From positions 1 through 64,000 of IMG/VR virus record IMGVR_UViG_3300005336_000019: a stretch of 64,000 nt of DNA; one strand, written 5' to 3'. The DNA comes from a virus. Lineage: Duplodnaviria > Caudoviricetes. Under the pieces are notes generated by a model, which did no database searches, had not been told where the DNA came from, and worked only from the letters and a program-made list of their open reading frames with translations. Both the position numbers and the translations under genes were made by a program. This document shows positions 5,845 to 52,798 of this stretch, piece after piece. How positions within the stretch are numbered: the first letter of the stretch is position 1; each line of letters opens with the position of its first letter.

Positions 5845-5905
5845 CGGGCCGACGGCGCCGCTCGGGGTGGCCGGGAGACCGGCCGCCCCCTCGGAAGGGA
5901 GAGGC

Positions 5906-6274
5906 ATGCACGAACAGGACGTCTGGCGGGTGCGGTTCACCCGGCAGCACGGGGAAGCGTGGTCGCAGACCCTGGAAGGGCTGATCACCTTCCGGTACGG
6001 GGCCAGCGGTACATGGGCCGCACATGCGGCGCTGCTGCACTGGACCTGGATGTGCGGGGTTCCGGGTGCTGCCGAGAACTACCCCATGCGGTACCTCGTT
6101 GAGGCCATCCGCATGAAGGACGGCGAGGAGATCGTCGCCGGGAAGGCGACCGCCGTACGGGACTCCCTGGACGGGAAGTTCCTCAACGAGAACCAGGTGG
6201 ACATTCTTCAGTTCGACCGGGAGGGGACGCTGATCCGCACCCGGGAGAGCTGGACCGAGGCCGTCAGGCACTGA
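5906..6274 (+). CDS. hypothetical protein
   Basis: RBS GGAAGGGAGAGG. Confidence 0.8.
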   Translation: MHEQDVWRVRFTRQHGEAWSQTLEGLITFRYGASGTWAAHAALLHWTWMCGVPGAAENYPMRYLVEAIRMKDGEEIVAGKATAVRDSLDGKFLNENQVDILQFDREGTLIRTRESWTEAVRH

Positions 6275-6290
6275 GAGAAGGGAGTGGGAC

Positions 6291-6512
6291 GTGACCCTCA
6301 CGCTCACGAAGGAACGGGCGCCGGAGCTGAACGGAACGATCGAGATCCGCGCCGAATGGAACCACTCGTGCACGTCGCAGTGCTCGAACCCGTGCACCGT
6401 GAACCGGCTGGCCACGCCCGTCGTCACGGGCCGCATCCCGCAGCAGCCGGGGCCCCAGACGCCCCCGCCGCAGACGCCGAAGGTCCCGCAGCAGCCGGGC
6501 CCCCGGGACTGA
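6291..6512 (+). CDS. hypothetical protein, Pro/Gln-rich tail
   Basis: RBS AAGGGAG; PQQPGP occurs twice. Confidence 0.7.
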   Translation: MTLTLTKERAPELNGTIEIRAEWNHSCTSQCSNPCTVNRLATPVVTGRIPQQPGPQTPPPQTPKVPQQPGPRD

Positions 6513-6540
6513 GACCAGGACGACGGAGAGGCAGAAGATC

Positions 6541-6984
6541 ATGGGTGAGTGGACGCAGCACGGTCAGGTCTGGTCGGACGACGGCGACGTGGGCGGTGAC
6601 ACGCAGATCGGGAAGGCGGCCAGCGTCCGGTTCGTGAACCCGGACTACCCCGGCGCCCGGGTCACGGTGTACGCCTACGCCCACGCCCCCGAGCGGCCGA
6701 TCGAGGCGAAGGTCGGATCGATCGAGGTCCACATGGGCTACGGCCCGGACCTGGGCAACCTCGGGATCGAGTCGCAGGTCTGGTTCGAGATCGACGACGA
6801 CGCCGCCGGGGACGCCGACGAGTGGGACCCGACCTGGTCGGAGATCAAGCACGAGTCGCTGGACTCGTTCATCGGGCCCGGAACGGACGAGCAGCGCGTG
6901 GCCGTGGCCGAGGCGGCGGCACTCGCCTGGATCCGGTCGTACGACCCGAAGAAGTTCATCGACTGGGACGGCAAGCGGTTCTGA
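6541..6984 (+). CDS. hypothetical protein
   Basis: RBS, GC3 bias. Confidence 0.8.
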   Translation: MGEWTQHGQVWSDDGDVGGDTQIGKAASVRFVNPDYPGARVTVYAYAHAPERPIEAKVGSIEVHMGYGPDLGNLGIESQVWFEIDDDAAGDADEWDPTWSEIKHESLDSFIGPGTDEQRVAVAEAAALAWIRSYDPKKFIDWDGKRF

Positions 6985-7059
6985 GCCGGTGCGTTCGAGG
7001 CGCCGGGGGTCCACGGGTTCCCGGCGCCCAGTGCACACCGGACGGAAGGAGAGAGAAGC

Positions 7060-8031
7060 GTGAAGACGATCAGGGACGCCGAACAGACCACCCCGCAGCA
7101 GCTCAAGGGCATGACCCCGCCGGAGGTGGACGAGCTGTTCGCCGCCGTCTGGGACCGGCGGTACGAGCTGCTGGAGGACGTGTACGCCGCCTGGAACGAG
7201 GTGCACTACGCCGTCGGCGACCGCCGGGTCAGCACGCAGACGTGGCGCATGGGCCATGCCGAGGTGCAGGAGAAGGCGGCCGGGACCGAGCGGGGACGCA
7301 AGACGCTCGACCGGGTGAACCGGGCGAAGGGTGCAGTTGCCGAGCTGGACGGCACCGTACTGGTCAAGCTGGAGAACGAGTTCGGCCGCCGGGGCGGATG
7401 GTCCCGGGCCTACCTGGTCACCGACGGGCACGTGCACAGTTCGATGCACTGCTCTTCGTGCAACCGGGGAGAGTTCCCGACCCGGTTCTCCTGGATGATC
7501 GACTACTCCGGGAAGAGCATGGCCGAGATCGTCGAGGCCGCCGGGGAACGGGCCTGCACCATCTGCTACCCGGACGCACCGGTTGCCCGGCGGGACAAGG
7601 GCGAGAACGTGGCCGTGCCCAAGTCGGTGATGCTGACCTCCGAGGAGATCGAGCGGGCCGAGGCCAGGGAGGCGGAGGCCAAGCGCCGGGCGGAGAAGAA
7701 GGTCAAGGCCGCGCTGAACGCGATCACGCAGCCCGACGGCACGCCCCTGCGGGACGAGATGGGCCGCGACGGCAAGCAGAAGGGCTCGGTCGTGAAGACC
7801 TTGCGCACCGCCCGCTCCGAGCTGAAGCGGGAGTGCTGGTACGCATACGCCTGGGGCGACGACGACGGCGCCCACGAGCGGAACATCCAGCATCTGGGCC
7901 GGGCCGTGGCCTGGAAGGAGAACGGTTTGGAGGTCGGTACCGAACCGACCGCCGAGCAGATCGAAGCGGTGATCGTCCCGCTGCGGGACAAGGCCGTCAA
8001 GGAAGTCGACAAGGCCCGAGCCGAGGGCTGA
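7060..8031 (+). CDS. actinophage-type Zn-binding hypothetical protein (HVHSSMHCSSC...ACTICYPDAP)
   Basis: Recognisable motif; strong RBS. Confidence 0.85.
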   Translation: MKTIRDAEQTTPQQLKGMTPPEVDELFAAVWDRRYELLEDVYAAWNEVHYAVGDRRVSTQTWRMGHAEVQEKAAGTERGRKTLDRVNRAKGAVAELDGTVLVKLENEFGRRGGWSRAYLVTDGHVHSSMHCSSCNRGEFPTRFSWMIDYSGKSMAEIVEAAGERACTICYPDAPVARRDKGENVAVPKSVMLTSEEIERAEAREAEAKRRAEKKVKAALNAITQPDGTPLRDEMGRDGKQKGSVVKTLRTARSELKRECWYAYAWGDDDGAHERNIQHLGRAVAWKENGLEVGTEPTAEQIEAVIVPLRDKAVKEVDKARAEG

Positions 8032-9354: not shown

Positions 9355-9663
9355 ATGGCCGAGCTGACCCGCGACACCACGCACTACATCGTCCACTCCA
9401 CGGTCGTCGACCCGGGACCGAACTCCACCTTCGGTACATCGGCACCGATCTCCGGCCCGCACGCCCTGGAGCGGGCGGTCAAGGCCGCGCACGAGGAACT
9501 GAAGGGGCGGCGCCGGGCCTTCGTCACGGCCCGGGATGACGCTTCCCGGATCCTCGCCGTGATCCCGGTCGTGGACTACCCGGTGTTCGGTGACACCCAC
9601 GTCCCCGAGCACGCACAGGACGTCCTCCGGGGCCTGTTCGACGACCTGGACTGGACGGTCTGA
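9355..9663 (+). CDS. hypothetical protein
   Basis: RBS GAGGAG. Confidence 0.8.
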   Translation: MAELTRDTTHYIVHSTVVDPGPNSTFGTSAPISGPHALERAVKAAHEELKGRRRAFVTARDDASRILAVIPVVDYPVFGDTHVPEHAQDVLRGLFDDLDWTV

Positions 9664-9734
9664 CACGGACGAAACCGGGCCCCTGGGAAGGGCTCCCGGT
9701 AGGCGGAACAGGACCGCCCTGACGAGTCCCGTCA
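9661..9734 (+). ncRNA. type II hammerhead ribozyme HH1 (cleavage after GUA, 9701)
   Basis: GGAC-GAAA-stem III CCGGG/CCCGG-UA-stem I GGCGG/CCGCC-CUGACGA-GUCC; all core residues present. Confidence 0.92.
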
Positions 9735-9754
9735 GCACGGAAAGGGAGAAGAAC

Positions 9755-20487: not shown

Positions 20488-20970
20488 ATGCTGGACGCCG
20501 ACCTCGTCCACGAGACGGGACACTTCAGCTACGCCGACGCCGAGCACCTGGCTGACCTGTGGAACCGGGCCTACCCGGCGATGCGGCAGATCATCACCCG
20601 GTACATCGAGAGCCAGCGGGAGTACATCGAGCGGAGGGGCTGGGTCATCGACCCGAATCACCCCCACGCCGAAGTGCTCCAGGAGCGCGCCACCCCGGAA
20701 CGGAAGGCCCGGTACCGGCTGAAGCTGTCGGAAGAGCTGCGCCGGGACCTCGGCCAGCTCGACCGGGGCACGCACAAGCCGTGCACCCGCAGCCCGGGAT
20801 GCTTCTCGGTGACGGCCGCCTACATGGCGGTGCGGAGCCTGATCAGTCACAGCTCCCTCAACAGTGAGGGGCTGGCCAACATCTACCGCCTGGCCGCCGA
20901 TCTGGCCGAGGCGGAGGAGCGGGTCAACGAGGCCCGCAAGAAGTGGCACCAGGAACAGGAGAAGAAGTGA
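20488..20970 (+). CDS. hypothetical protein
   Basis: ORF tiling. Confidence 0.8.
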   Translation: MLDADLVHETGHFSYADAEHLADLWNRAYPAMRQIITRYIESQREYIERRGWVIDPNHPHAEVLQERATPERKARYRLKLSEELRRDLGQLDRGTHKPCTRSPGCFSVTAAYMAVRSLISHSSLNSEGLANIYRLAADLAEAEERVNEARKKWHQEQEKK

Positions 20971-21209
20971 ACGCAGAAGTCGAGGTCCCCGTCGCCGAGA
21001 GCATCGCCGTGGGTCTGGCGATCGTCTTCTCGGATCTTCCGCAGAGCACCATCACGTGGATGTCCGAGCTGATGGTGCGCACCTGGCACGAGGGGCCGGA
21101 CCGCTCCGACGACCTGCTCTTCAACGCCCTCGACAAGGAGGTCCGGGCGGGCAACGAGGACGCCATCCGCATGGTCCTCGCCGCCGCCCGGCGCGGTCTG
21201 AAGGTCTGA
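20967..21209 (+). CDS. hypothetical protein (paralog of 21308-21529)
   Basis: FSDLPQSTITWM...VRAGNEDAI. Confidence 0.8.
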   Translation: MNAEVEVPVAESIAVGLAIVFSDLPQSTITWMSELMVRTWHEGPDRSDDLLFNALDKEVRAGNEDAIRMVLAAARRGLKV

Positions 21210-21279
21210 CTCCGAGGCCGAAACCCCTGGAAGGGGGTCGTGGGACGAATGGAAGTCCCGCCTGACGATGGCCGTCAGA
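21205..21279 (+). ncRNA. type II hammerhead ribozyme HH2 (cleavage after GUC, 21239)
   Basis: GGCC-GAAA-CCCC/GGGG-UC-stem I GUGGGAC/GUCCCGC-CUGACGA-U-GGCC; outer stem UCUGAC/GUCAGA. Confidence 0.93.
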
Positions 21280-21307: not shown

Positions 21308-21529
21308 ATGGAACTGCCCAACCGCGCCGAGGTGCGCAGCCAGATCAGCTCGAAGTTCCCGGGCCTGCCCAACGACACCCTGGACTGGGTGGCGGGCATG
21401 CTCTCCGACAAGATCGAGGCCGACTGGCAGACCGCCGACGCCGAGTTCCACCGCGAGATGGAGCGCGCGATCCGGGCCGGTGAAGAGCACGCGATCCTCG
21501 TGGCCCTCGCCGCGCTCAAGGCCGTCTGA
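21308..21529 (+). CDS. hypothetical protein (paralog of 20967-21209)
   Basis: FPGLPNDTLDWV...IRAGEEHAI. Confidence 0.8.
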   Translation: MELPNRAEVRSQISSKFPGLPNDTLDWVAGMLSDKIEADWQTADAEFHREMERAIRAGEEHAILVALAALKAV

Positions 21530-21544: not shown

Positions 21545-21601
21545 GAAGGGGCTCCGGTTGCGGCCGGGGCCCCTTCTGCGTATCGTCTTTGACCTAGGCC
21601 A
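21545..21601 (+). promoter_or_regulatory. terminator-like hairpin overlapping promoter TTGCGG-N17-TATCGT, operator TGACCTAGGCCA (21590-21601)
   Basis: GAAGGGGCTCCGGT/GCCGGGGCCCCTTC stem. Confidence 0.7.
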
Positions 21602-23096: not shown

Positions 23097-23702
23097 ATGG
23101 CGATGACCCGCGAAGAGGAGACGGCGCTGGCGAAGGAGATGGCCGAGGAGATGGGCCTGAACCTGCCGTACGCCGCCCAGGTGGGCTTCGAGTACGACGT
23201 GAAGGCGGCCCGGCAGAAGGCCGAGGAACTGCGAGACCTGGCCCGCAGGCGGGAGCAGGAGTCGCGCGACTCGTTCGATCGGTGCGACACGGACGGCGCC
23301 CTCTCGCAGTGGGCGAGCGGGATCAACGCCGAGAAGTACCGGCTCCAGGCCGACATCGTCGAGAACGGCGGCATGTGGTACTTCCCGGCCCTCTTCGACC
23401 TGGAGGGCAACCTGGTTCCGGCCCGGGAGGCGTACGGCCAGTACGGATCCTTCTGGTCTCTGCTGGACGCCGACGGGAACCGCACCGGCCAGACCTTCAA
23501 CGAGTCGAAGGCCCAGAACGACAAGGTGAAGATCCGCAACGATGCCCGGAAGGGCTACTACGTCGGCTCGGTTCTGGCCCCGGCCAGAGTCGTGACGCGC
23601 GGCCAGTCCGTCACCTCGGTCGCCTGCCACATCGACCGGAACGACGGCGGCTGGGACCCGGACGTGATGGTGCTCGACAACGGGAAGGGCGAGCAGGAGT
23701 GA
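23097..23702 (+). CDS. actinophage-type hypothetical protein (SFDRCDTDG.LSQWA family)
   Basis: Recognisable motif; RBS AGGAG. Confidence 0.85.
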   Translation: MAMTREEETALAKEMAEEMGLNLPYAAQVGFEYDVKAARQKAEELRDLARRREQESRDSFDRCDTDGALSQWASGINAEKYRLQADIVENGGMWYFPALFDLEGNLVPAREAYGQYGSFWSLLDADGNRTGQTFNESKAQNDKVKIRNDARKGYYVGSVLAPARVVTRGQSVTSVACHIDRNDGGWDPDVMVLDNGKGEQE

Positions 23703-25779: not shown

Positions 25780-26274
25780 ATGGCAAACGACTTGGTGAGA
25801 TTCCCGGAGGCCGGGGATCACTGGGAGGAGATACCGGGGCCCGGCATGTACGTGCTGGCGGTTCTCCCCAGGAAGGCTGAGCCCGACCAGTGCGCCGTGG
25901 GCGCCGCCATCCTCATGCTGCGCCCACAGGGGCGCCTGCTCACCCCGGTCGACCCGCTGTGGCCGACGGAGGAGAGCCGGAACTACGACGCCAGCCTGCT
26001 GGAGGAGGCGGCACAGCTCTTCGAGGAGAGGGGCGAGCGGGTCAAGGCCGCGACGATACGGGCCCAGTTCCCCACCACGGACCTGTCGGTCGAGGTCGTC
26101 CAGGCCACACACATGGGCTCGACAGCGCGCACCCTGCGCAGCACGAAGACCGGCGAGTACTGGCAGGCCCGATGGGAAGACCTCACGCCGTCCGGAATCC
26201 TGCACCTGCACCAGATCCACACCTGCTTCGTACGGCCGCCCGTACTGATCACGTTCCTGGGGGACGAGGACTGA
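25780..26274 (+). CDS. hypothetical protein
   Basis: RBS AAGGAGAGG. Confidence 0.8.
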   Translation: MANDLVRFPEAGDHWEEIPGPGMYVLAVLPRKAEPDQCAVGAAILMLRPQGRLLTPVDPLWPTEESRNYDASLLEEAAQLFEERGERVKAATIRAQFPTTDLSVEVVQATHMGSTARTLRSTKTGEYWQARWEDLTPSGILHLHQIHTCFVRPPVLITFLGDED

Positions 26275-26654
26275 TGAAGCTGTTCGGCAAGAAGAAGCCG
26301 GAAGACGAGAAGCCGCCGACCGGCCAGAGGCCCCGCATCCGGGGGCACGTCGAAGCGTTCTACGTCCAGCGGGCGTCGGAGGCATTCATCGAGGTCATCA
26401 TGAAGGCTTCCGACGCGCAGCGCCCCGGCAGGATCGGAGCCGACCACAGTTCCGACGTGGACCGGGCACAGGTGCTGGAGGCTGCCGTCTCGGTGGCCGC
26501 TCTGCACTGCAACGAAGATCTGCTTTCCCGGCTGTACTCCTTCCGGGACGCCGTGCTCGAACTCACCATGGGCGGCGGCTCGGAAGCCGAAGTACGCGCC
26601 ACCCGAGAGCACTTCACGAAGGGGTGCCGGGAAGCGCTCGGCACCGACCAGTAG
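26274..26654 (+). CDS. hypothetical protein
   Basis: TGATG overlap. Confidence 0.8.
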   Translation: MKLFGKKKPEDEKPPTGQRPRIRGHVEAFYVQRASEAFIEVIMKASDAQRPGRIGADHSSDVDRAQVLEAAVSVAALHCNEDLLSRLYSFRDAVLELTMGGGSEAEVRATREHFTKGCREALGTDQ

Positions 26655-26675
26655 AACCGGAGAGGGAGAAGAGCA

Positions 26676-27191
26676 GTGCGACTCATGCACCAGCACGACC
26701 TGGGCGGACCGGGCCGGGTGATCGTCATGGCAGGTGACCTCCCCGTCACCATCACGGTCGACGAACGGGCCGAGTACCGCTCGGTGGACGTCCTGGCCGA
26801 TCGCGGCCTGGCCGCCTGGGCAGGACCCATCGGCCCGGGAGGCGTCTCGTTCGGGGTCGAGGTCGGCAGGCCCACCCTGATCAACACCCTGCGCGACAAG
26901 CTGGGTCTGCGTATGGGTACCTCAGTGTCCGGCGGCGGCTCGGTCTCCTCGTCCGGGCGCGGCTCGATCGCGGCCGGGGGGAGCATCGTCAACTGTGCCA
27001 CCGGCCGGGGTGCGAAGGTCACCGTGAGCGGAGCGGAGCAGAAGCAGCCGGAGGTCGGCGTACATCTGACTGTTCCCAGGCTGTGCATCTTCGAGATCCG
27101 GTCCCACGGCGGCATCCGCGTTCTGCACGACGGTATCGAGCTGTCCTTCCAGGCGGCCGAGGAGCGCGGGCTTCTGGCGGCGGCCCGATGA
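26676..27191 (+). CDS. hypothetical protein
   Basis: RBS CGGAGAGGGAGAAGA. Confidence 0.8.
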   Translation: MRLMHQHDLGGPGRVIVMAGDLPVTITVDERAEYRSVDVLADRGLAAWAGPIGPGGVSFGVEVGRPTLINTLRDKLGLRMGTSVSGGGSVSSSGRGSIAAGGSIVNCATGRGAKVTVSGAEQKQPEVGVHLTVPRLCIFEIRSHGGIRVLHDGIELSFQAAEERGLLAAAR

Positions 27192-27406
27192 TCTCGGCGG
27201 TCGGCGACTTCCTCGTGGAGCGGTTCCCCGGAGCGGGCCCGAACCGCCGGGTGGCACGCATCGTCAGCAGCCAGCCGGAGGAGGGGCGCCTTCGGGTGTC
27301 CCGGACCGTCCAGGCGGGAGGCCGTCGCTACACGGTGGCCTTCCACTTCCCTCCCGGCATCCGGCAGGGCCGGGCCATCGCCTGGCCGAGGGAGGCGGAG
27401 CGCTGA
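27188..27406 (+). CDS. hypothetical protein
   Basis: ATGA overlap. Confidence 0.65.
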   Translation: MISAVGDFLVERFPGAGPNRRVARIVSSQPEEGRLRVSRTVQAGGRRYTVAFHFPPGIRQGRAIAWPREAER

Positions 27407-27831
27407 TGAGCCTGCGCCAGGAAGCCGAAGCACTGTTCTTCGGAGTCGGAGTCCAGGAGCTGTACGGCCACTGGTCCTGGGCCGACCGGGGCTCGATGTT
27501 CATTCGGTTCGGCGAGTGGGAGCCGGGCCAGGCGCCCGACACCTGGGCCTACCGGGTTCACGCACCTCACCCGCTTGACAGTGATCGCCGGATCGACAAG
27601 GTGATCACGTACTCGGTGCTGTACACAGCAGCCGAGCTGATCGCCTACGAGAACGCCGACACCGAGAAGCCGTTCCACCCGCCGAGCGAAGAAACCGGTC
27701 GAGCCTGTTCCATGTGGGTCTTCAGCGACGAACTCGGCACGTTCGACCCTCACACTCTGGACCAGGTTCTCCAGGTTGCCGTGTTCGGCGGCGTGAAGTA
27801 CCCCCACTTCGAGCCCCGCAACCGGGGCTGA
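27406..27831 (+). CDS. hypothetical protein
   Basis: TGATG overlap. Confidence 0.8.
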   Translation: MSLRQEAEALFFGVGVQELYGHWSWADRGSMFIRFGEWEPGQAPDTWAYRVHAPHPLDSDRRIDKVITYSVLYTAAELIAYENADTEKPFHPPSEETGRACSMWVFSDELGTFDPHTLDQVLQVAVFGGVKYPHFEPRNRG

Positions 27832-27849
27832 CGGAAAGCGAGAAGAGAC

Positions 27850-28179
27850 GTGAAGCACGAGTTCGCCATCGACTACGCCGGGCTCACTCCGCAGCAGAAG
27901 CTCGTGATTCTGGAGGAGATGGGATTCAAGGAGATTCCGCCCTCCGAGCACGGCACGAACTGTCTGTCCCGGCAGGGCAGCGGCATCATCTGCGACTGTC
28001 TCCAGGGCGTGACGACCTGGGGCGCTCCGCAGGACGTGAAGAAGTACCTGGGCGAGACGCACGAGGAACGCGCCGAGTTTGCGGCCCGGCGCCAGCTCTA
28101 CCTGAACGAGGGCGAGGGTGAGAGCCCCGGATCCTGGATCTATCACCTGGAGAAGAACGCCCCCCGCTACTGGCACTGA
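27850..28179 (+). CDS. hypothetical protein
   Basis: Purine-rich RBS. Confidence 0.8.
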   Translation: MKHEFAIDYAGLTPQQKLVILEEMGFKEIPPSEHGTNCLSRQGSGIICDCLQGVTTWGAPQDVKKYLGETHEERAEFAARRQLYLNEGEGESPGSWIYHLEKNAPRYWH

Positions 28180-28194
28180 GGAACGGAGAAGAGC

Positions 28195-28497
28195 ATGGCG
28201 AAGATCGATGTGAACGAGGTCCAGGGCCTCTTCCGGGTCGGTCTGGCCACGGACCAGAAGGGCAACGAGGTCTACGTGCTGGAGATCCTGGGGATCCCGG
28301 TTCTGTACGCCGACGCCCACGAGTTCGAGGCGGGCCACCAGGACGCCGAGGACTGGCAGGAGACCTTCGAGACGCGACTGGCCCGGATGCTGGCCAAGGT
28401 GCTGACGGAGGGCTACGACCACGACTTCGTGAAGTGGCGCACCGAATCGCCGACCGGCCGTGACGTGTACCGCCTCGGCCCCTTCGGGGAGTCGTGA
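28195..28497 (+). CDS. hypothetical protein (tandem paralog 1)
   Basis: VLEILGIPV motif. Confidence 0.8.
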   Translation: MAKIDVNEVQGLFRVGLATDQKGNEVYVLEILGIPVLYADAHEFEAGHQDAEDWQETFETRLARMLAKVLTEGYDHDFVKWRTESPTGRDVYRLGPFGES

Positions 28498-28769
28498 TGG
28501 ACGCCATCCGGATCGGGAAGACCGAGGAGAACGGCCAGCCCCTGATCGTCGTCGAGCTGTTCGGTGTTCCGCTGGCCAGTTCGGTGCACAAGGTCGCCGA
28601 GTACGACGAGGACCCCGAAGGGTTCACGAAGTGGTGGCGGGAGTACTTCGCCCGTCAGATCGTCAGCATGCTGGCGGAGGAACTGCACCAGGAGCGCCGG
28701 GTCACCGGCTGGCTGATGGCCACGAGGCTGTCACCGAGGCCGCCCGGCCTGCCGGTGGAGGAGGCGTGA
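28494..28769 (+). CDS. hypothetical protein (tandem paralog 2)
   Basis: VVELFGVPL motif. Confidence 0.8.
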   Translation: MMDAIRIGKTEENGQPLIVVELFGVPLASSVHKVAEYDEDPEGFTKWWREYFARQIVSMLAEELHQERRVTGWLMATRLSPRPPGLPVEEA

Positions 28770-29050
28770 ACCCCGAACTGTTCAAGGCGGGAAGCGTCGA
28801 GCTGCCGAACGGCGGGTGCATCACCGTCGTGGAATTCATGGGGCATCCGATCGCCGAGGGCCCGGCCGAGGCCCTGGATGGCGAGGGTGCGGCCGAGAGG
28901 GTTCAGGAGGCTTTCTGTGCTGCTCTCGTCGCCGCCCTGTCCATGGTGATGGGGAGCGAGCAGTTCGGCCGGTACGCGCCCAGGGAGTGGACGTACTGGC
29001 ACCCGATGGCCCCGCCCCTGGCGAGGCTTCCGAAGGGAGAAGAGGGATGA
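28766..29050 (+). CDS. hypothetical protein (tandem paralog 3)
   Basis: VVEFMGHPI motif. Confidence 0.8.
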   Translation: MNPELFKAGSVELPNGGCITVVEFMGHPIAEGPAEALDGEGAAERVQEAFCAALVAALSMVMGSEQFGRYAPREWTYWHPMAPPLARLPKGEEG

Positions 29051-29295
29051 AGGGAATGGACGGGCAGCTCATGCGAGCCGTGGCCCGGCTCCACGACGAC
29101 GAGCTGGAAACCCGGCGCCGCTGGGCCCAGCACATCCGGGAGGAGTTCGGGAAGTACCACGACCACTCCGGCGGCGGCGAGTGCGGCGCCTGCGGGGCGA
29201 TCCAGGCGGCGAACTGGATGGACCCGGACTATGTCAAGGATGGCCCGCTGGCGGAGCCGTTCGGGACCTGGCGGGACCGTCACCCCAGCATGTGA
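29047..29295 (+). CDS. hypothetical protein
   Basis: ATGA overlap. Confidence 0.75.
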   Translation: MKGMDGQLMRAVARLHDDELETRRRWAQHIREEFGKYHDHSGGGECGACGAIQAANWMDPDYVKDGPLAEPFGTWRDRHPSM

Positions 29296-29296
29296 T

Positions 29297-29366
29297 CTGA
29301 CCAGAGGCCGAAACCGGGCAGCCAGCCCGGTCGTGCAGTGAGACTGCACCTGACGATGGCCGTCAG
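29297..29366 (+). ncRNA. type II hammerhead ribozyme HH3 (cleavage after GUC, 29332)
   Basis: GGCC-GAAA-CCGGGC/GCCCGG-UC-stem I GUGCAG/CUGCAC-CUGACGA-U-GGCC; outer stem CUGAC/GUCAG. Confidence 0.93.
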
Positions 29367-29382
29367 TGAGAGAGGAAGGGTG

Positions 29383-29577
29383 ATGGCGAAGCGACAGAAG
29401 ACGGTGGACTCGGTCTACGACTGGGCCGCCCGTCATGATGTACCGGCACCCGACGCCTTCGCGGTGAGCCACGTCGGGCTCGACGGTCACGACAGGCTTC
29501 TCAGGCTGGCCGCTGCGCGCTGGCGCCGCCTGGTGGCGACGAAGAAGACGGGCTTCCCGCTCATCGACGGGGACTGA
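29383..29577 (+). CDS. hypothetical protein
   Basis: RBS GAGGAAGG. Confidence 0.7.
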   Translation: MAKRQKTVDSVYDWAARHDVPAPDAFAVSHVGLDGHDRLLRLAAARWRRLVATKKTGFPLIDGD

Positions 29578-29637
29578 AGCAGCTCGGAAGGTGTCCGGAA
29601 GCCGGGCGAACTGATTCGGAAGGGACGAGGAAGAGGC

Positions 29638-30114
29638 ATGGAACTCACGGAACCGAAGCGTGGCGACAAGGTCGTCTACCAGGGACAGCTCCGCACGATC
29701 GAGGGGTTCGACGAGGATCACGGCACCCACCTGGGGATGGGCGCCTGGATCTCGATCAACGAGTACGAGAAGAACGGTGATGGTGTGTGGGTTCGCGCCG
29801 ATTCGCCCCGTACCTACCTGATCGGCGAGCCCTACGAGAACTACCGCTCCTCGCGCACGGGTGTCGCCGTGATCCGGCCCGCCGTCTACCAGAGGGGCAG
29901 CACGGAGAAGGTCATCACCACCTCCCCCTGCTGCACCCTGAACGTCCGGCACCTCAACTACGCGGACGTCAACTCCGACCTGGCCAAGAGGACCGGCGGC
30001 TGGAGCGAGACGTGCACGCAGTGCGGCTGGCACTACGCGGTCTCCCTCGTCTCCCAGACCAACGACCCCCGCCTCGGCCTGTACGGCGTGCGCTGGGAGT
30101 CCAAGGGGTTCTGA
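29638..30114 (+). CDS. hypothetical protein
   Basis: RBS GAGGAAGAGG. Confidence 0.8.
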   Translation: MELTEPKRGDKVVYQGQLRTIEGFDEDHGTHLGMGAWISINEYEKNGDGVWVRADSPRTYLIGEPYENYRSSRTGVAVIRPAVYQRGSTEKVITTSPCCTLNVRHLNYADVNSDLAKRTGGWSETCTQCGWHYAVSLVSQTNDPRLGLYGVRWESKGF

Positions 30115-30129
30115 AAGGGTCGAATCAAC

Positions 30130-30663
30130 ATGAATCAGGCACAACAGCAGGAAGCGGAGATCTTCGACGTTGACGGCACCCTGTGCGACGTCAGCAGCGT
30201 GCGCCACTACGTCACTCCTCCGAACCGCGACTTCCACTCCTTCCACATGGCTTCCGCCTTCTGCCCGCCACACCCCGAGGTAGTCGAGCGGGTGCACGAG
30301 GCCAAGGCGAAAGGCCGGGCCGTCCTCGTAGTGACCGCCCGCATGGCCCGGTACCGGACCCTCACCCGGAAGTGGCTGGAGAGCTGCCAGATCCCGTTCG
30401 ACAGCATCTGGACGCGGGCGAACGACGACTTCCGCAAGGACGCGATCGTGAAGCGGGAGATCCTGGCGAAGATCCGGGCCAACGGGTTCGTCGTGATGAA
30501 GGCGCACGACGACAACCCGGCCGTGGTCGAGGTCTGGGAGGACGAGGGGATCGAGACCAAGATCGTGCCCGGCTGGGACGATCAGTTCACTGGCCTCCTG
30601 CTGCCGCAGGACGGCTTGACCGTGGTCAGGGAGTCTGACCGCATCGGAAAGGGAGAGAAGTGA
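30130..30663 (+). CDS. HAD phosphatase resembling the T4 PNK 3'-phosphatase domain
   Basis: FDVDGTL, VTAR, D.RKD..VK, DDNP.VV..W motifs. Confidence 0.85.
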   Translation: MNQAQQQEAEIFDVDGTLCDVSSVRHYVTPPNRDFHSFHMASAFCPPHPEVVERVHEAKAKGRAVLVVTARMARYRTLTRKWLESCQIPFDSIWTRANDDFRKDAIVKREILAKIRANGFVVMKAHDDNPAVVEVWEDEGIETKIVPGWDDQFTGLLLPQDGLTVVRESDRIGKGEK

Positions 30664-30926
30664 CCATCAAGATCAAGCCGCTGGGCAAGCGGCCCGACTA
30701 CTTCGACGGCGAGTTCGAGGCGACCGAGATCCGCCACGAGCCCTACGACTGGGACGTCTGGCCGACCGGCCCCGTCTTCCCAGAGGGGCACATCTTCCAG
30801 GACAAGGACGGCAACGCCTACGAGATCGTCGTCCCCCGTACCGTCCAGGAGTCCAGGCCCGCCCACTCCGTCCGGTACGTCCACGTCTACCTGTGCCGCC
30901 CGGCCGACCCGAAGGACGCCGTCTGA
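30660..30926 (+). CDS. hypothetical protein
   Basis: GTGA overlap. Confidence 0.75.
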   Translation: MTIKIKPLGKRPDYFDGEFEATEIRHEPYDWDVWPTGPVFPEGHIFQDKDGNAYEIVVPRTVQESRPAHSVRYVHVYLCRPADPKDAV

Positions 30927-31417
30927 TGCTCTCCGTCACCGACGTGCTGACCCTCATGGCCGAGGGCAAGCCGCTCCCGCAGCAGGAGTTCCCCGACATC
31001 ACCCAGGAGCAGATCGACGACCTCCAGGAGTTCGAACCCGCCCTGCTGAACCGGCTGATCGAGTCGGAGCAGGGCGGCGAGGAGTCCGTCGATACCGTCC
31101 TGGCCGAACTCCAGCAGAAGGTGGACCAGCACGGCTGGTACCCGGTGGTCGCCACTCTCTGCTGGCAGTTCGCGCACCGGTACCACGAGGACATGGTGCC
31201 GGTGAACCTCCAGCTCTCCGACGGCACGGTGGGACTGCTGAAGATGCTCCCCATCGCCAGCCGGGCAGAGGAGAAGGACGAGGGTGCCTGGACGATTCCG
31301 TTCGCCATGCTGGCCAGCCTGGGCGAGGAGGAGGCTCTGGCGTTCACCGTCGGCGCCGCCATGTGCGCGGCCGTCGGATTCATCCAGTCCACCCTGGAAG
31401 AGGAGGCCCGAGGGTGA
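30926..31417 (+). CDS. hypothetical protein
   Basis: TGATG overlap. Confidence 0.8.
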   Translation: MLSVTDVLTLMAEGKPLPQQEFPDITQEQIDDLQEFEPALLNRLIESEQGGEESVDTVLAELQQKVDQHGWYPVVATLCWQFAHRYHEDMVPVNLQLSDGTVGLLKMLPIASRAEEKDEGAWTIPFAMLASLGEEEALAFTVGAAMCAAVGFIQSTLEEEARG

Positions 31418-31839
31418 GCACCGACGACATCTACCTCTGCCCGACCTGCGGAAAGCCGTTCGACAAGAGCGACCGGCTCTTCGATTTCGCCATCGCGGCG
31501 CACGAGAAGGACCACACGCCGCAGCGGAACAACCCGGCGAACATGATCCGCTGGAACGAGGACGGCCTGATGTGGTGCTGCGTCCTGTGCGGTGCACCGA
31601 TGCACATCGGCGAGTACACAGCCCGCCAGATGATCATCGGTCACTGCCGGGTGGTGCACGACTCCGTGACCGCAGGCTCTTCTTCCGCCCCCGTTACGGC
31701 CGGGGGCGGCCGGAGTTCCAGCGGCTCGCGCGGGTTCGGCGAGGCGGTCGGCGACATCGTCGAGGACTGCGCCGAGGGAATCGGCAAGGTCTTCAAGGCC
31801 ATCGGGGAAGCTGTCGGCGACGCCTTCTCCGGCAACTAG
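31414..31839 (+). CDS. C2H2-type zinc-finger hypothetical protein
   Basis: CPTCGKPF...H...H and CVLC...H...H. Confidence 0.75.
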   Translation: MSTDDIYLCPTCGKPFDKSDRLFDFAIAAHEKDHTPQRNNPANMIRWNEDGLMWCCVLCGAPMHIGEYTARQMIIGHCRVVHDSVTAGSSSAPVTAGGGRSSSGSRGFGEAVGDIVEDCAEGIGKVFKAIGEAVGDAFSGN

Positions 31840-31939
31840 CCGGAGAACATCCGGATGGCGGCCGTCTCGACCATCGTCTTGACGGCCGCCACCTCGATCG
31901 TGTTCTATGTAGTCACACACCCGGAAAGGTGAGAGAAAA

Positions 31940-33052
31940 GTGGCGCGAGAAGAGAACCTTTCGACCATCGAGAGGATGCTGGGATTCGAGTTCGTCTCGG
32001 ACCCCCGCAAGGCGCGGTTCCCGATCCCGGAGACGCCGCAGGAGTACCTGAAGAAGAACCCCGAGCGGCCCTACCCGCACCCGTCCATGAAGATCACCCC
32101 CGAGATGGCGCGCGACGTCCTCAAGTACCGGGTGATCCGCGTCGAGCGGATGCCGCGCGAGCTGCGTCACCCCGAGGTCACGGCCAACCGCCGCTTCCTC
32201 ATCACGACGCTCAACGGCACCAAGAAGAACAAGGGCCTCGTCTCCATCGTTGCCGACGGCGGCTGGGACGACCGGATCTCCACCTCCGTGGTCTTCACGG
32301 AGGACGGCTTCCTGCTCGACGGCCAGCACCGGTTCGCCGCCTGCGCCCTGTCGGGCAAGACGATCGAGGTCCCGGTCACCACGAACGGCCAGTGGGGCAC
32401 CTTCTCCGTGCTCGACACGGGCCGTGGCCGCAACGCCGGTCAGCTCCTCGGTGACATCCCCTACCCGGACCAGTCGGCCGCCGCCGCCAAGCTCATCCTC
32501 CCGGTCATCCGGGGCACCGAGCGCACCGAGTGGACCGTCGCCGACGCCAGCAACCAGGAGATCTACGAGCTGGTCCACGGCTGGCCCTTCTTCCACGAGA
32601 CGTGGGAGGGCTCCGGCTCCTGGATGAAGCACGTGCTCCAGGCGGCGGCCAGCCGGATCCCGCCGAGCGCCCTGGCGGCCTCCGTCATGATGGCGCTGGC
32701 GGCCGGTGCGAACGCCTCGCACGTCCAGGAGTTCCTGAACGGCCTGAAGCCGGGCTACCGCGACGGCTTCCCCCGGATCGGGCCCAAGGGCGAGGACCCG
32801 CGTCACCTGCTGCGCCGCCAGTACATGAACAAGGGCAACCGGAAGCCCACCGACAAGGACCGCCGCGACCAGGTCAGTCACGTCCGCAAGGCGATGGACG
32901 TCTGGCTGGAGTGGAGGGCCCACGAGGAGGGTGACCCGAAGGCGAAGGTCGTCGAGCTGCTGAAGCTCCAGGCCGCCGCCGAGAACGCCGACCTGCCCGA
33001 GGTCTGGCACGCCGACGCCGTTCGTCAGTTCCACAGCGAGAGGGTTTCCTGA
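31940..33052 (+). CDS. DGQHR / ParB-like N-terminal domain protein
   Basis: LLDGQHRFAA and DTGRGR motifs. Confidence 0.75.
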   Translation: MAREENLSTIERMLGFEFVSDPRKARFPIPETPQEYLKKNPERPYPHPSMKITPEMARDVLKYRVIRVERMPRELRHPEVTANRRFLITTLNGTKKNKGLVSIVADGGWDDRISTSVVFTEDGFLLDGQHRFAACALSGKTIEVPVTTNGQWGTFSVLDTGRGRNAGQLLGDIPYPDQSAAAAKLILPVIRGTERTEWTVADASNQEIYELVHGWPFFHETWEGSGSWMKHVLQAAASRIPPSALAASVMMALAAGANASHVQEFLNGLKPGYRDGFPRIGPKGEDPRHLLRRQYMNKGNRKPTDKDRRDQVSHVRKAMDVWLEWRAHEEGDPKAKVVELLKLQAAAENADLPEVWHADAVRQFHSERVS

Positions 33053-42073: not shown

Positions 42074-42894
42074 CGCTTGATCCCCATCTCTTTGCGCAGC
42101 CTGTCGGCCGTCTCCTGCGCCGTCCTGGCGGCCCGGTCCAACTCCCTGACGGCAGACTCTGCCCGATCCTTCGCCCTGTCCAGGCGGAGGCGCCCCTGGA
42201 CGAGGGCCTGAAGGGCTTCAGCAGCCCCCTCCGGCTCCAGCTTGTCCTCCCAGGAGTACTCGGCCAGGCCGACCCCCAGAGCGGCCTCCAGGCGGTCCAT
42301 GAGTTCGAGGCGCCGCCGGTCCTTCTCGTTGAAGGTGCCCCGCTGGCGCTGCGCCTGCCGCTCCTGGTCGTGGAACTTCTGCCGCAGCTCCCGCTCCTGC
42401 CTCTGGAGCGCGTTCGTCCGGGTGGTCTCGGTGTTCTTCAGCAGGGTGATGAGCAGGCCCGGCGTGATCTGCGCCTCCCGCTCCTCCGGCTTCACGAGCA
42501 CTTTGAACCGGCGCCCCCGCGTGCCGGGCATCATCAGGCCCCAGCCCTTGGGCAGCTCGTCGTCCTGCACGATCCCCTCGTGCGGCACGACCAGCCAGAA
42601 GATGTTGCAGTATGGCCACCACGCCTCGGCCTTCTTCGGCTCTTTCAGCTCCCGGAGCCAGTCGGCGCGGCTCACCTTCAGCTCGCAGACCTCGACGATC
42701 CCGGCGCCGCGCGAAGCCCACAGTCCGATGTGCACGGCGTCGGCCCGGCGCCCGGAGTGGCCGGGCGCGGTGACCTCGGTCAGGTACACGGCTCCGGCCC
42801 CGGCAAGGTCGAGCTGATCTTTGTCGCTGATGAAGTGCTGGCGGAGCTTGTCGTCCAGCTCGGCCGTGGTCATGCCGTTCGGCGTGGCCATCAC
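42070..42894 (-). CDS. MmcB-like PD-(D/E)xK nuclease
   Basis: RRADA...ELKVSRADWLREL...FWLVVP. Confidence 0.75.
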   Translation of the reverse strand: MMATPNGMTTAELDDKLRQHFISDKDQLDLAGAGAVYLTEVTAPGHSGRRADAVHIGLWASRGAGIVEVCELKVSRADWLRELKEPKKAEAWWPYCNIFWLVVPHEGIVQDDELPKGWGLMMPGTRGRRFKVLVKPEEREAQITPGLLITLLKNTETTRTNALQRQERELRQKFHDQERQAQRQRGTFNEKDRRRLELMDRLEAALGVGLAEYSWEDKLEPEGAAEALQALVQGRLRLDRAKDRAESAVRELDRAARTAQETADRLRKEMGIKR

Positions 42895-47027: not shown

Positions 47028-47540
47028 TCAGCCGATCCGGCCGCCCGGCCAGACGAACGTTTTGATCTCGGTGTTCTTCAAGATCTTCAAGCACCCTGCG
47101 CAGGGCTGCTCGGTGATGTACATCGTGGCACCGACCAGGCGGCTGCGATCCGAGACATCCAGCAGGGCGTTCATCTCGGCGTGCACCGCGATGCACGTGC
47201 CGGGCCCGGTGTCGTACGAACTCCCGGGGGCCACCGACCAGGTGCAGGGCCACATCTCGCCGCAGGCGCACTGGCCGGTGAAAACCCGGCACTTGCAGTC
47301 CGGCGGGTGTGGCGGCCCAGGGCACCGCGAGATCTCGTAGTGCCTGCCGCGCGGGCACTCACCGGCCAGGCAGCTCTCGCCACCGCGCGGGCCGCCGTTG
47401 TAGCCGCAGCCGATGACCCGATGAGCCTCATCCAGCAGAACGGCCCCGACCTGTCGCCTGGTGCAGTCACCCCGGAGGGAGACGGCCTCGGCGATGCCGA
47501 GGGCCCAGGCGTCCCAGTCGGGGCGCTCCGCCGTTCTCAC
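47028..47540 (-). CDS. dCMP deaminase (ComEB-like)
   Basis: RPDWD...CTRRQVGA...GYNG...HAEMNAL...PCAGC. Confidence 0.92.
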
Positions 47541-50298: not shown

Positions 50299-50371
50299 TG
50301 CTCCTGGCAGGAATTGAACCTGCGACATCCGGATCCGGAATCCGGCGCTCTATCCCCTGAGCTACAGGAGC
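50299..50371 (-). tRNA. tRNA-Arg(CCG)
   Basis: Cloverleaf; anticodon arm CCGGA-TTCCGGA-TCCGG; no encoded CCA. Confidence 0.93.
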
Positions 50372-50380
50372 TTTCCTCTC

Positions 50381-50776
50381 TCACCAGATGTCGTACAGCA
50401 TCCGGCGAGGAACCTTCTCGGCCTTCTCGTACAGCCGACGTTCGAGTTCGCCCTTCGTGCGGCGCCCGGCTTCCAGCTTGCTCTTCACGTAGCGCCGGTT
50501 GGCGCGCTCGTGCTTACCAGCCCAGTAGGTCCGGCTGGAACTGGGGGTCCAGGCCCCGGTGTAGGTCCACCAGCGAGCGGTACGCCTCACCTTCCGGGGC
50601 TGCGGCCTGCGGCCCTGCCTCTCGGCGTCACGGAGTTCCGCAGCGCTGTAGCGCAGGTCGTAGACCTCGTGCTCGCGCACCGGAGTGATCGGCCGCTTGC
50701 GCCAGTACATCCTGTAGCCGTCAGGCCAGTCGCGCTGGTCGAACTTTCCGGGCGTGTGATGCGTCGTCTTGCCCAT
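50381..50776 (-). CDS. basic Arg/Trp-rich hypothetical protein within the tRNA cluster
   Basis: RBS AGGAGG; ends ...RMLYDIW. Confidence 0.8.
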   Translation of the reverse strand: MGKTTHHTPGKFDQRDWPDGYRMYWRKRPITPVREHEVYDLRYSAAELRDAERQGRRPQPRKVRRTARWWTYTGAWTPSSSRTYWAGKHERANRRYVKSKLEAGRRTKGELERRLYEKAEKVPRRMLYDIW

Positions 50777-50877
50777 CGGAATTCATCCTCCTAGGGCCGC
50801 GAATTTCGCGGACCTAGGTGAATCCGGTGACGATGTCCATCACCCCTCCAAGCTGTTCAGGCACGGTTGTTCCCAAG

Positions 50878-50975
50878 TGCGCGAGGCAGGGATCGAACCT
50901 GCACTGGACGTCTCCACAGGGCCTTTCCGAGTGCCCTGTTCGCCGGGCTCTGACTCGGAGTTCCCTTACACGCGC
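50878..50975 (-). ncRNA. tRNA-like RNA with aberrant D and anticodon arms
   Basis: Acceptor GCGCGTG/CTCGCGC; canonical T arm GCAGG-TTCGATC-CCTGC; 10-nt anticodon-position loop. Confidence 0.75.
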
Positions 50976-51066
50976 GACCGCACTGCGCAATGCGGTCCTT
51001 TACCACCGACTGTAATTCCGACCGGGTTTTTCAGACCACGGAAGGATATGGTGTCGTCGGCACACG

Positions 51067-51139
51067 CTCTCCTGACTGGACTTGAACCAGTAACATCCGG
51101 ATTAACAATCCGGCGCTCTGCCGGTTGAGCTACAGGAGA
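51067..51139 (-). tRNA. tRNA-Asn(GTT)
   Basis: Cloverleaf; loop TTGTTAA. Confidence 0.95.
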
Positions 51140-51274
51140 TCGAATCTGAAATTGTAGTGGGCCTCATCCCTAGCACCACGCGGCGCACCGACCTTGTTCT
51201 GCTGCGCTTCTCAACTGTTCCGGTTGTCGGGCGGATGGCAACCGGACCGCACTCCTATCTCCGCCACGTGCACG

Positions 51275-51346
51275 CTCCCCCGTCTGGACTTGAACCAAAA
51301 CTTCCGATTCCAGAGACCGGCGGTCTGCCAATTAACCTACGGGGGA
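51275..51346 (-). tRNA. tRNA-Gln(CTG)
   Basis: Cloverleaf; loop CTCTGGA. Confidence 0.93.
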
Positions 51347-51459
51347 TCGCTCTTGAATTGTTGGCAACCGGACGGCAATGCTTCCACGCATGGACTATCT
51401 TCGCATGTATGTCCCACCCGCCACAGTGGGGCTGCGTTGATAGCTTACCGTCCGGCCAG

Positions 51460-51535
51460 TGGCCCCGGCCCGATTTGAACGGGCGACCTCTCGCTTTTCA
51501 GGCGAGCGCTCTTTCGCGAACTGAGCTACAGGGCC
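51460..51535 (-). tRNA. tRNA-Phe(GAA)
   Basis: Cloverleaf; loop CTGAAAA. Confidence 0.93.
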
Positions 51536-51686
51536 TTGCACCCCTTGATGTATAGCTGGGCAGGGGCCGCCCTCCACTCGCCTCCCGGAGAAGGTTGGCT
51601 CATGGACTCGCTTTGCCTCACTCTCTGCCCGGTGGATAGTGGCCTTGTGAGCCACGAACTCCACCGGAATCTGCCTCCGAAGCCAG

Positions 51687-51760
51687 CGGTCCCGACGGGA
51701 TTTGAACCCGCGACCTCTCGGATGACAACCGAGTGCTCTGCCGAACTGAGCCACGAGACC
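51687..51760 (-). tRNA. tRNA-Asp(GTC)
   Basis: Cloverleaf; loop TTGTCAT. Confidence 0.95.
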
Positions 51761-51855
51761 ATTGCTTCTTACCGCTGTTGAGTTGAAAAGGGAGCCCCGC
51801 TTTCCCGGCCTCCGCCTTACGGCGGGGCTCCCGATAGACCCGTCAGGGGGTCTCG

Positions 51856-51929
51856 TGGAGATGGAGGGATTCGAACCCCCGTCCTTCCGATCCGTAGTCG
51901 GCTGCCCCATCCAACTGGGCCACACCTCC
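51856..51929 (-). tRNA. tRNA-Arg(ACG)
   Basis: Cloverleaf; loop CTACGGA. Confidence 0.93.
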
Positions 51930-52019
51930 ATCAGCCTTTCACCCTTCGCGCCAAGCGTGACCAAGGCAGGATCCAGGCCGACCGCATCCAAGCCCCAGGA
52001 AGCCGTGAGGATGCGGCAG

Positions 52020-52092
52020 TACGCCCTACTGGACTTGAACCAGTGACACGAGGATTAAGAATCCCCTGCTCTGCCAACTGAGCTAAGGGCGC
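52020..52092 (-). tRNA. tRNA-Lys(CTT)
   Basis: Cloverleaf; loop TTCTTAA. Confidence 0.95.
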
Positions 52093-52099
52093 GCGTTCT

Positions 52100-52222
52100 T
52101 CAGTTCTGTCTGTCGTCCTTGGGGCCCCAGTAGTGGCCCGTGTAGACGTGGACGGGGTATCCGTCCTTCTGCACCTTCTTCAGGTGCCCTTCGTACGTCC
52201 GAGCCTTGCACTTACAGCTCAC
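52100..52222 (-). CDS. small hypothetical protein (40 aa, MSCKCKARTY...)
   Basis: RBS AAGAAGGT before GTG. Confidence 0.6.
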   Translation of the reverse strand: MSCKCKARTYEGHLKKVQKDGYPVHVYTGHYWGPKDDRQN

Positions 52223-52378
52223 GATCGCACCTTCTTTCTTGTCCCGATTCCAACAGGAACCCCTGGTTTCCCGGGACAGCGTTCCACCAGGGGTCTGCCT
52301 AGCGTCCGGCCGGTTCTGTCCTCCCGATCCTTCTGCTGGCATACGGCTTACGGATTATGAGTCCGCGCCGCACCTTCG

Positions 52379-52452
52379 TATCCCTGACTGGACTTGAACC
52401 AGTGGCCTTTCCCTTATGAGGGGAGTGCTCTGACCGACTGAGCTACAGGGAT
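52379..52452 (-). tRNA. tRNA with CAT anticodon (elongator Met or Ile2)
   Basis: Cloverleaf; loop CTCATAA; lacks initiator hallmarks. Confidence 0.92.
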
Positions 52453-52457
52453 CTGCG

Positions 52458-52530
52458 AGCCCCCGACCGGAATTGAACCGATGGCATCCGACTTACGAAG
52501 ACGGCGCTCTACCGACTGAGCTACGGAGGC
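52458..52530 (-). tRNA. tRNA-Thr(CGT)
   Basis: Cloverleaf; loop TTCGTAA. Confidence 0.93.
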
Positions 52531-52798
52531 ATGAACTCCGGGTCCTAGGAGGGACGCAGACTTGCATGGGATAGCGAGCTGAGAAACAACGCTAGGCCCC
52601 GGAGTTCTGTCGGGAGAATCCTGCCCGATCTTTAATCGACCACCCGCTGGATCGATGGACAGGTTCCTCCCTTTGCGAGACACCAACCTCGCGATTCCCA
52701 GGCTGTAGACCTGGCGGCAGCGGGAACTGCGGACTCCGGGCGGAGTGGACGACGTCGTAAGGGAAAGAGGTACTTCCGATACGCCGCCCGGAGTCCAG

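Follow-up and report, generated by a model that had tools for sequence, protein, structure and literature searches.

A predicted type II hammerhead ribozyme with a core-complementary tail, flanked by small genes in a Streptomyces phage relative

What occupies the gap between two small phage genes at positions 29297-29366, and what would it do there? The gap lies in a stretch of 64,000 nucleotides, here called the window, which belongs to the record of an uncultivated virus (76.5 kb, rated 40% complete). An earlier note on this DNA had read the segment as a hammerhead ribozyme with a GUC cleavage site. Our main reading as a whole is that the element, which we call HH3, is a genuine type II hammerhead carried in a multi-gene phage message, with a predicted cut between C29332 and G29333; we put the probability of this reading at about 0.8. 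That HH3 is a genuine, active hammerhead is, judged from its sequence, very probable.

Architecture and conservation of the element

The core motifs and the minimum-energy fold identify a complete type II hammerhead on the plus strand. Its parts follow one another in the order CUGAC, CAGA, GGCC, GAAA, stem III, GUC, stem I, CUGACGA, U, GGCC and GUCAG. Stems I and III are capped and stem II is open to the flanks, which is the type II topology. Folding of 29296-29367 gives the three-way hammerhead junction as the structure of lowest energy (-34 kcal/mol, z -3.65), and 1 of 200 shuffles was as good.

Stem II consists of two helices. The inner helix (IIa) pairs GGCC at 29306-29309 with GGCC at 29358-29361, and helix 2 is paired in 98.7% of alignment cells. 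The outer helix (IIb) pairs CUGAC at 29297-29301 with GUCAG at 29362-29366. Between the two 5′ strands sits CAGA (29302-29305), a one-sided bulge of 4 nt; in the subfamily alignment the bulge measures 2-6 nt and usually has A at its end. The core segment GAAA at 29310-29313 (G12, A13, A14 and A15.1) was assigned from the sequence, the Rfam alignment and a core descriptor. Its last base, A29313, pairs with U29331 (A15.1-U16.1), a pair that is AU in 58 of 58 distinct relatives. Together with the 6 bp of CCGGGC and GCCCGG it forms the 7-bp stem III hairpin (29313-29331) around the loop AGCCA (29320-29324), an assignment based on the fold, the orthologues and covariation. GUC at 29330-29332 is an NUH cleavage triplet, and applying the hammerhead consensus to the sequence places the predicted cut between C29332 (C17 of GUC) and G29333. 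Stem I (29333-29349), seen in the fold and by covariation, is a hairpin of 6 bp (GUGCAG/CUGCAC) that contains UGCAG UGAGA CUGCA, with UGAGA as its loop. It is followed by a segment (29350-29357) assigned from the sequence and the Rfam alignment. This comprises CUGACGA at 29350-29356 (C3 to A9), which fits the core consensus CUGANGA and is invariant in the 58 distinct relatives, and one extra U ahead of stem II.

Contact with loop I is normal in natural hammerheads that cleave at full speed. Inspection of the alignment and crude greedy loop-calling gave no convincing loop I contact in HH3, whether as a pseudoknot or as pairing with the bulge. Loop I (UGAGA) could pair with only three nucleotides of the tail. 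It is possible that the CAGA bulge contacts loop I, a conjectural tertiary role that comes without clear covariation.

Over parts of 27000-32000 the record is around 80% identical to six Streptomyces phages with genomes of 184-187 kb (Kela, JustBecause, Kradal, EhyElimayoE, Satis and Quantum). The Kela orthologue takes up the 87 nt that separate genes 250 and 249. Orthologues are also located at the matching junctions of JustBecause and Kradal, and their cores are identical. The stems differ by compensatory changes: CCGGGC/GCCCGG of stem III becomes CCCCGC/GCGGGG, and GUGCAG/CUGCAC of stem I becomes GCAGCA/UGCUGC or GCGUGG/CCACGC. R1, a covariance model derived from five orthologues, detects three strong copies each in the 76.5-kb record, Kela, JustBecause and Kradal; all lie on the gene strand, and their order is the same in the four genomes. 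In the related phages the copies occupy gaps between annotated genes, as clustered phage hammerheads do.

A pattern scan of IMG/VR yielded 46 loci, which together with the phage loci gave 63 model matches, 58 of them distinct. We note that the scans for relatives used patterns fixing GGCC, GAAAC and GTC, and that the 46-locus scan fixed the whole 3′ block. The alignment of the 58 sequences, which are related and not independent, was fitted to the model; MAFFT misaligned the variable stems of the three paralogues. Over the 58 distinct sequences, pairing extends to 96.6% of cells (77.2% in shuffles) and falls to 27-40% when the partners are slid. Both sides change in 16 of 22 pairs, and 0 of 500 shuffles reach the covariation score. 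These both-side changes involve five of the seven stem III pairs and all six stem I pairs (11 of 13 together); stem II is conserved, partly since the search pattern fixed it. Two uncultivated phage contigs carry dense groups of pattern matches, with eight within about 5 kb in one (IMGVR_UViG_3300038412_000035, about 2995-7858, loci L094-L096) and four within 1.7 kb in the other (IMGVR_UViG_3300046467_002670, locus L129).

The Rfam model for this class (RF02276, Hammerhead_II, clan CL00010) aligns to 29306-29368 over all 66 model positions. The score is 31.7 bits (E 6.8e-5 on 261 bases and 0.017 on the whole window), against a gathering score of 37 bits, which is a curated threshold and not a structural feature. 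HH3 falls below it mainly because two bases (‘ug’) are inserted between A9 and stem II; routine annotation would thus miss HH3. At gathering thresholds Rfam reports 11 tRNAs and no ribozyme in the window; the tRNA genes form an array at 50299-52997 on the minus strand (56.7-71.1 bits). When 20 related loci were compared with RF02276, 2 matches reached the cut-off and 6 more lay at 31.6-36.1 bits, so the cut-off misses most members of the HH3 subfamily. A core-only descriptor (CGAAAC..GTH..CTGANGA) has three matches in the window, namely HH3 and its siblings HH1 and HH2, where 0.19 are expected; 0 of 100 shuffles reach three. The hammerhead with a GUC site described in the earlier note is therefore borne out by the sequence, the RF02276 alignment, the fold and the core descriptor. 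Its suggestion of structural selection is supported by the compensatory changes in stems I and III, both among the orthologues and among the 58 distinct relatives.

Other candidates in the window were set aside. An RF02276 match at 6847-6900 (13.3 bits) lies inside coding sequence and was taken as chance. Weak R1 matches occur at 23346-23425, 54070-54153 and 42521-42588, all on the minus strand, with E values of 0.07-0.5. A twister-sister match at 47255-47329 on the plus strand was not accepted. Its 23.8 bits (E 0.0047 for 301 bases and 0.99 for the whole window) fall short of the cut-off of 34, the match lacks one of the model's stems, and there are long ORFs on both strands.

Neighbouring genes, sibling copies and their junctions

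HH3 sits in a long run of small ORFs on the same strand. The upstream ORF (29047-29295, plus strand, start uncertain) ends with UGA at 29293-29295 and is a homologue of gene 250 in both Kela and Kradal. Downstream, 29372-29577 (plus strand) comprises the ribosome-binding site GAGGAAGGG, 5 nt beyond the end of HH3, and a 64-aa ORF (ATG at 29383, stop at 29575-29577) homologous to Kela gene 249. No homologue of this ORF (29383-29577) was found in the Kradal stretches examined. The seven ORFs beside the three hammerheads match 0 Pfam and 0 PHROG families.

HH2 (21206-21278, plus strand; predicted cut C21239/G21240) is a sibling type II hammerhead that scores 60.4 bits with R1. HH1 (9660-9735, plus strand; predicted cut A9701/G9702) is more divergent, with a GUA site, a stem IIa of GGAC/GUCC and a score of 32.7 bits. 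In both, the UGA of the upstream ORF is the UGA within CUGAC. In HH3 the upstream stop sits 2 nt 5′ of CUGAC, thus CUGAC is not kept there merely as a stop. Exact CTGAC begins 36 of the 58 distinct subfamily members and has a stop codon inside it in 27 of these 36. Stops close to stem II (GGCC) are widespread: among the matches listed, 141 of 159 IMG/VR hammerheads have a frame of 40 codons or more whose stop lies 2-9 nt ahead of it. With a control anchor placed 100 nt upstream, the count is 8 of 43 (again among the matches listed). The commonest arrangement in these IMG/VR hammerheads, among the matches listed, is UAG overlapping the first G of GGCC.

A scan of 26000-32000 revealed no promoter-like site and no excess of terminator-like signals above chance, which fits read-through transcription. 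The RNA evidence comes from four RNA or possibly-RNA runs out of 24, all kept as contigs. Run X17, from one study, has a single contig of 273 letters that lies on 29337-29597; the 12 letters ahead of 29337 are unmatched and have no counterpart in the window. Run X19 has one contig on 29371-29543, and no contig of the four runs crosses 29281-29317. Contigs cannot show RNA ends, and X17 and X19 therefore speak neither for nor against cleavage.

The earlier note had pointed to sequence blocks common to HH3 and HH2 with different stems I and III, and had taken this to suggest that the ribozyme was duplicated as a portable intergenic module. The blocks are as described. Two exact copies of the 18-mer CCTGACGATGGCCGTCAG lie in the window, at 21261 and 29349 (0.16 expected for matches with at most three mismatches), TCTGAC and GAGGCCGAAACC are also common to both elements, and stems I and III differ. 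HH3 and HH2 agree at 39 of 39 positions in the conserved blocks and at 7 of 45 in the variable parts. The copy in Burkholderia phage BcepGomr matches HH3 equally well, at 39 of 39 conserved-block positions, part of which are fixed by the pattern of the relatives search, and at 12 of 55 elsewhere. Since these blocks are invariant across a widespread phage subfamily, they reflect constraint and are no evidence for a recent duplication within the genome. Kela and JustBecause carry separate orthologues of the HH2 type and of the HH3 type, so the two types split before these phages diverged. The argument for duplication from the common blocks is thus not supported as it stands, on the equal match to the BcepGomr copy and on the separate orthologues.

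Portability fares better when the module is mapped at orthologous junctions, as the earlier note had proposed, and gain and loss are seen in a map of three junctions in four genomes. At the HH2 junction, the orthologues of the flanking genes in Kradal (270 and 269) lie 25 nt apart without a hammerhead; Kela has its hammerhead behind its version of the upstream gene, and the next gene differs from that in the window. At the HH3 junction, the window and Kela both have gene 250, a hammerhead, the 64-aa ORF and a conserved 158-aa ORF. Kradal has gene 250, a hammerhead, an unrelated 72-aa ORF, a second hammerhead, an unrelated 123-aa ORF and gene 247, equal in length (158 aa) to the conserved ORF of the window and Kela. 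At the HH1 junction the downstream gene is the same in all three phages and the upstream gene differs in Kradal. The turnover at these three junctions is suggestive of cassette-like exchange.

The surroundings of HH2 have features of their own. The flanking ORFs, 20943-21206 and 21308-21526 (both plus strand), look like distant paralogues of each other, and each matches both Kradal genes 270 and 269, or Kela gene 269 (tblastn, 25-56% identity). Just past the downstream gene, a terminator-like GC-rich hairpin followed by UUCUG is located at 21545-21585 (plus strand), and the 73-aa gene is thereby bracketed by hammerhead and hairpin in the window. The hairpin is also present after the orthologous gene in Kradal (L330, 7790-7825, minus strand).

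A tail with two possible partners

The tail GUCAG (29362-29366) is complementary to the upstream CUGAC of the active fold and also to CUGAC of the core, as seen from complementarity and from computed energies. With the addition of G8 and the last C of stem II, the second pairing becomes a 6-bp hairpin at 29350-29366 (CUGACG/CGUCAG, loop AUGGC). This hairpin buries core positions C3 to G8 and the 3′ strand of stem II and is incompatible with the active fold. In the published consensus a tail pairs with loop I as a pseudoknot; here loop I varies but the tail stays constant, so this tail does not play that part.

Tail-core complementarity extends well beyond HH3. In an unbiased sample of hammerheads of the GGCC type, N′UCAG directly follows stem II in 22 of 65, among the matches listed. 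A scan leaving core position 7 and the tail base free gave, for 108 distinct sequences among the matches listed, C7/G in 83, U7/A in 23, U7/G in 2 and C7/A in 0. Thirteen distinct sequences of the U-insert variant in which N7 is not C comprise 12 with U7/A and one with G7/C. The latter (IMGVR_UViG_3300042305_000692, locus L345) is alone among the matches listed in having G at core position 7; its tail starts with C, which adds a third Watson-Crick type to the tail-core pairs. Counting wobbles, the first base of the tail is complementary to N7 in 121 of 121 distinct phage-contig sequences among the matches listed. As a control, 39 chance matches from cellular genomes that failed the stem checks gave 11 Watson-Crick, 5 wobble and 23 non-pairing combinations. 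Crude clustering of 96 sequences (among the matches listed) produced 14 clusters, of which 8 are C/G only, 3 U/A only and 3 mixed; the number of independent N7-tail changes is therefore small, yet above one.

The two folds are close in computed energy, with the active and alternative folds of HH1-3 1.1-2.8 kcal/mol apart. The values for active fold and hairpin are -35.0 and -33.1 kcal/mol in HH1, -32.7 and -31.6 kcal/mol in HH2, and -33.3 and -30.5 kcal/mol in HH3. When HH3 is folded in a 101-nt context the active form is at -34.0 kcal/mol and the hairpin form at -38.7 kcal/mol, so that the inactive hairpin form is predicted as the structure of lowest energy; on this prediction, HH3 RNA might be mostly inactive. 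Of 96 members without the upstream CUGAC (among the matches listed), 69 are more stable in the hairpin form, and the median difference is 0.8 kcal/mol. The U-insert subfamily has the upstream CUGAC in 36 of its 58 distinct members, compared with 2 of 108 others among the matches listed. On these models we lean, with some reserve, towards the tail-core hairpin being functional.

Proposed role and relation to known systems

In the mechanism that we propose, HH3 would be transcribed within a multi-gene phage message, filling the gap between the stop codon and the next ribosome-binding site, and would cut the RNA between C29332 and G29333. From hammerhead chemistry, the upstream message would then end in the stem III hairpin with a 2′,3′-cyclic phosphate, and the downstream message would begin with a 5′-OH and the stem I hairpin. 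After refolding, the downstream piece would carry the tail-core hairpin just before the ribosome-binding site. One long transcript would in this way likely be converted into separate messages, possibly differing in stability or translation; by analogy, processing of mRNA is the probable purpose of HH3. Pairing of the tail with the upstream CUGAC would extend stem II and favour the active fold. Pairing with CUGAC(G) of the core would form the hairpin and exclude the active fold, and we read this second pairing as a putative conserved functional feature. Judged from the modelled folds, the hairpin may slow cleavage, may act after the cut by locking the 3′ product and releasing the 5′ product, or may couple cleavage to ribosomes terminating on the upstream CUGAC.

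Does the element need to cleave at all? It could be an inactive relic or a plain cluster of stabilising hairpins that folds without cleaving, an intergenic RNA structure and nothing else. The Rfam score under the cut-off, the extra U at the junction of core and stem II, the lack of an identified loop-loop contact and the competitive inactive fold predicted for the RNA all point that way. Every catalytic nucleotide is invariant in the 58 distinct relatives, however, and the stems covary, which would be unexpected if only hairpins mattered; we regard the relic as highly improbable. Equally improbable is that the inverted repeat CTGACG..CGTCAG is a DNA site for a dimeric protein and not an RNA hairpin. 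A palindrome would indeed produce identical covariation with N7, but the ribozyme core dictates one of the half-sites, the repeat is always within the transcribed ribozyme, and the two U7/G cases (among the matches listed) are RNA wobbles that break the DNA palindrome. It is less improbable, though still unlikely, that the element is a module of mobility or recombination, either a cassette travelling with small genes or a set of about 40 invariant bases serving as recombination junctions, so that spread and not RNA processing explains the copies. This would account for the presence of HH2 in the window and Kela and its absence between the orthologous Kradal genes, and for the different genes downstream of HH2 in the window and Kela. 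The two units of hammerhead and unrelated small ORF at the Kradal HH3 junction, where the window and Kela have one, and the identical invariant blocks in Burkholderia phages would fit as well. The map, however, covers three junctions in four genomes only, adjacent copies are set apart by compensatory changes in their variable stems and are thus not recent copies, and selection on the pairing and on every catalytic base shows that an RNA function is maintained.

A further possibility would refine the main reading. A ribosome terminating at the stop codon in or next to the upstream CUGAC would unwind stem II, the tail would mask the core and the ribozyme would be off; on the modelled folds we hold this as tentative and rather doubtful. 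Equally tentative is the corollary that the cut would be made only if the upstream ORF is untranslated or after the ribosomes leave. The stop inside CUGAC in HH1, in HH2 and in 27 of the 36 subfamily members starting with CTGAC is consistent with such coupling, as is the near equality of the two folds in energy. A distance of 2-9 nt between stop and stem II, as in the 141 of 159 hammerheads (among the matches listed), is within the footprint of a terminating ribosome. The upstream CUGAC is rare (2 of 108, among the matches listed) in sequences that have the tail but lack the U insert, which makes it look like an added element able to tip the balance. On the other hand, a stop flush with the ribozyme may merely reflect a compact genome and the keeping of ribosomes out of the fold, and the stop of HH3 itself lies 2 nt outside CUGAC. 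More broadly, many phage type II hammerheads including HH3 could be two-state, self-masking devices in which the tail right after stem II follows N7, the one free base of the core, a decoy CUGAC that usually carries the upstream stop competes for the tail, and ribosome termination sets cleavage. From the sequences we consider this generalisation doubtful, and we are just as hesitant in placing the decoy CUGAC in a lineage of Streptomyces and Burkholderia phages. If true, it would be a natural ribozyme switch that is read by translation and has no ligand.

The preferred reading, a cleaving hammerhead within a phage message, is close to what is known. According to the text of PMC3088659 (Perreault 2011), clustered type II hammerheads flank small prophage genes and were proposed to process long transcripts; a proposal of mRNA processing for genomic hammerheads is also drawn from the text of PMC6765202. 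HH3 resembles the type II hammerheads of the PMC3088659 text in its catalytic core, its topology (I and III capped, II open), its placement between genes on the gene strand, and its occurrence in phage DNA as several copies beside small genes of unknown function. It differs from RF02276 type II in its score (31.7 against 37 bits) and in the extra U after A9. In contrast to the PMC3088659 text, stem II of the HH3 type continues into a second helix, with the upstream stop often lying in the 5′ strand of that helix, and the tail is complementary to the core, whereas that of the published consensus is complementary to loop I as a pseudoknot. The terms ‘stop codon’ and ‘ribosome’ were not found in the passages of PMC3088659 that were searched. 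Three type II hammerheads of Desulfovibrio vulgaris cleave in vivo, as determined by cyPhyRNA-seq (PMC8782182, text portion). Like HH3, they are of type II, number three per genome and have genes of phage origin as neighbours. They are active in cells, and both their host and their sequences are different from those of HH3.

The kind of ribozyme to which HH3 belongs is thus already known. In the literature search, which left subscription journals and the PMC3088659 supplements outside its scope, no paper on hammerheads of Streptomyces phages was found. A core-complementary tail was not found in the portions of PMC3088659, PMC8782182, PMC6765202, PMC10085705 and PMC6155905 that were searched, nor were the tail-core pairing and the upstream competitor found described there; the supplements of PMC3088659 might hold such sequences. 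The purpose of genomic hammerheads in phages is, according to parts of two reviews (PMC6765202 and PMC6155905), still open. To this question the locus contributes three unannotated ribozymes from a laboratory-cultivable family of 185-kb Streptomyces phages. JustBecause infects S. lividans, and both cleavage and effects on the neighbouring genes are therefore directly testable. The tail-core pairing and the second CUGAC overlapping the stop offer a handle on whether hammerheads are regulated or constitutive cutters; the hairpin and its upstream competitor are the parts most worth experiment.

Hammerheads with an inserted base and ribozymes with competing inactive folds both have precedents. Chrysanthemum chlorotic mottle viroid has an active type III hammerhead with an A inserted between A9 and stem II. 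HH3 likewise has one inserted base at this junction, although it is U and not A and the hammerhead is of type II and not type III. Viroid hammerheads are known that are active only transiently, and hepatitis delta virus (HDV) has attenuator pairings. As in these alternative folds, the competing pairing in HH3 would mask catalytic nucleotides. Unlike them, the masking strand of HH3 is a tail of 5-6 nt right after stem II that is conserved across many phages, and its lineage has a second, upstream CUGAC that would counter the masking tail.
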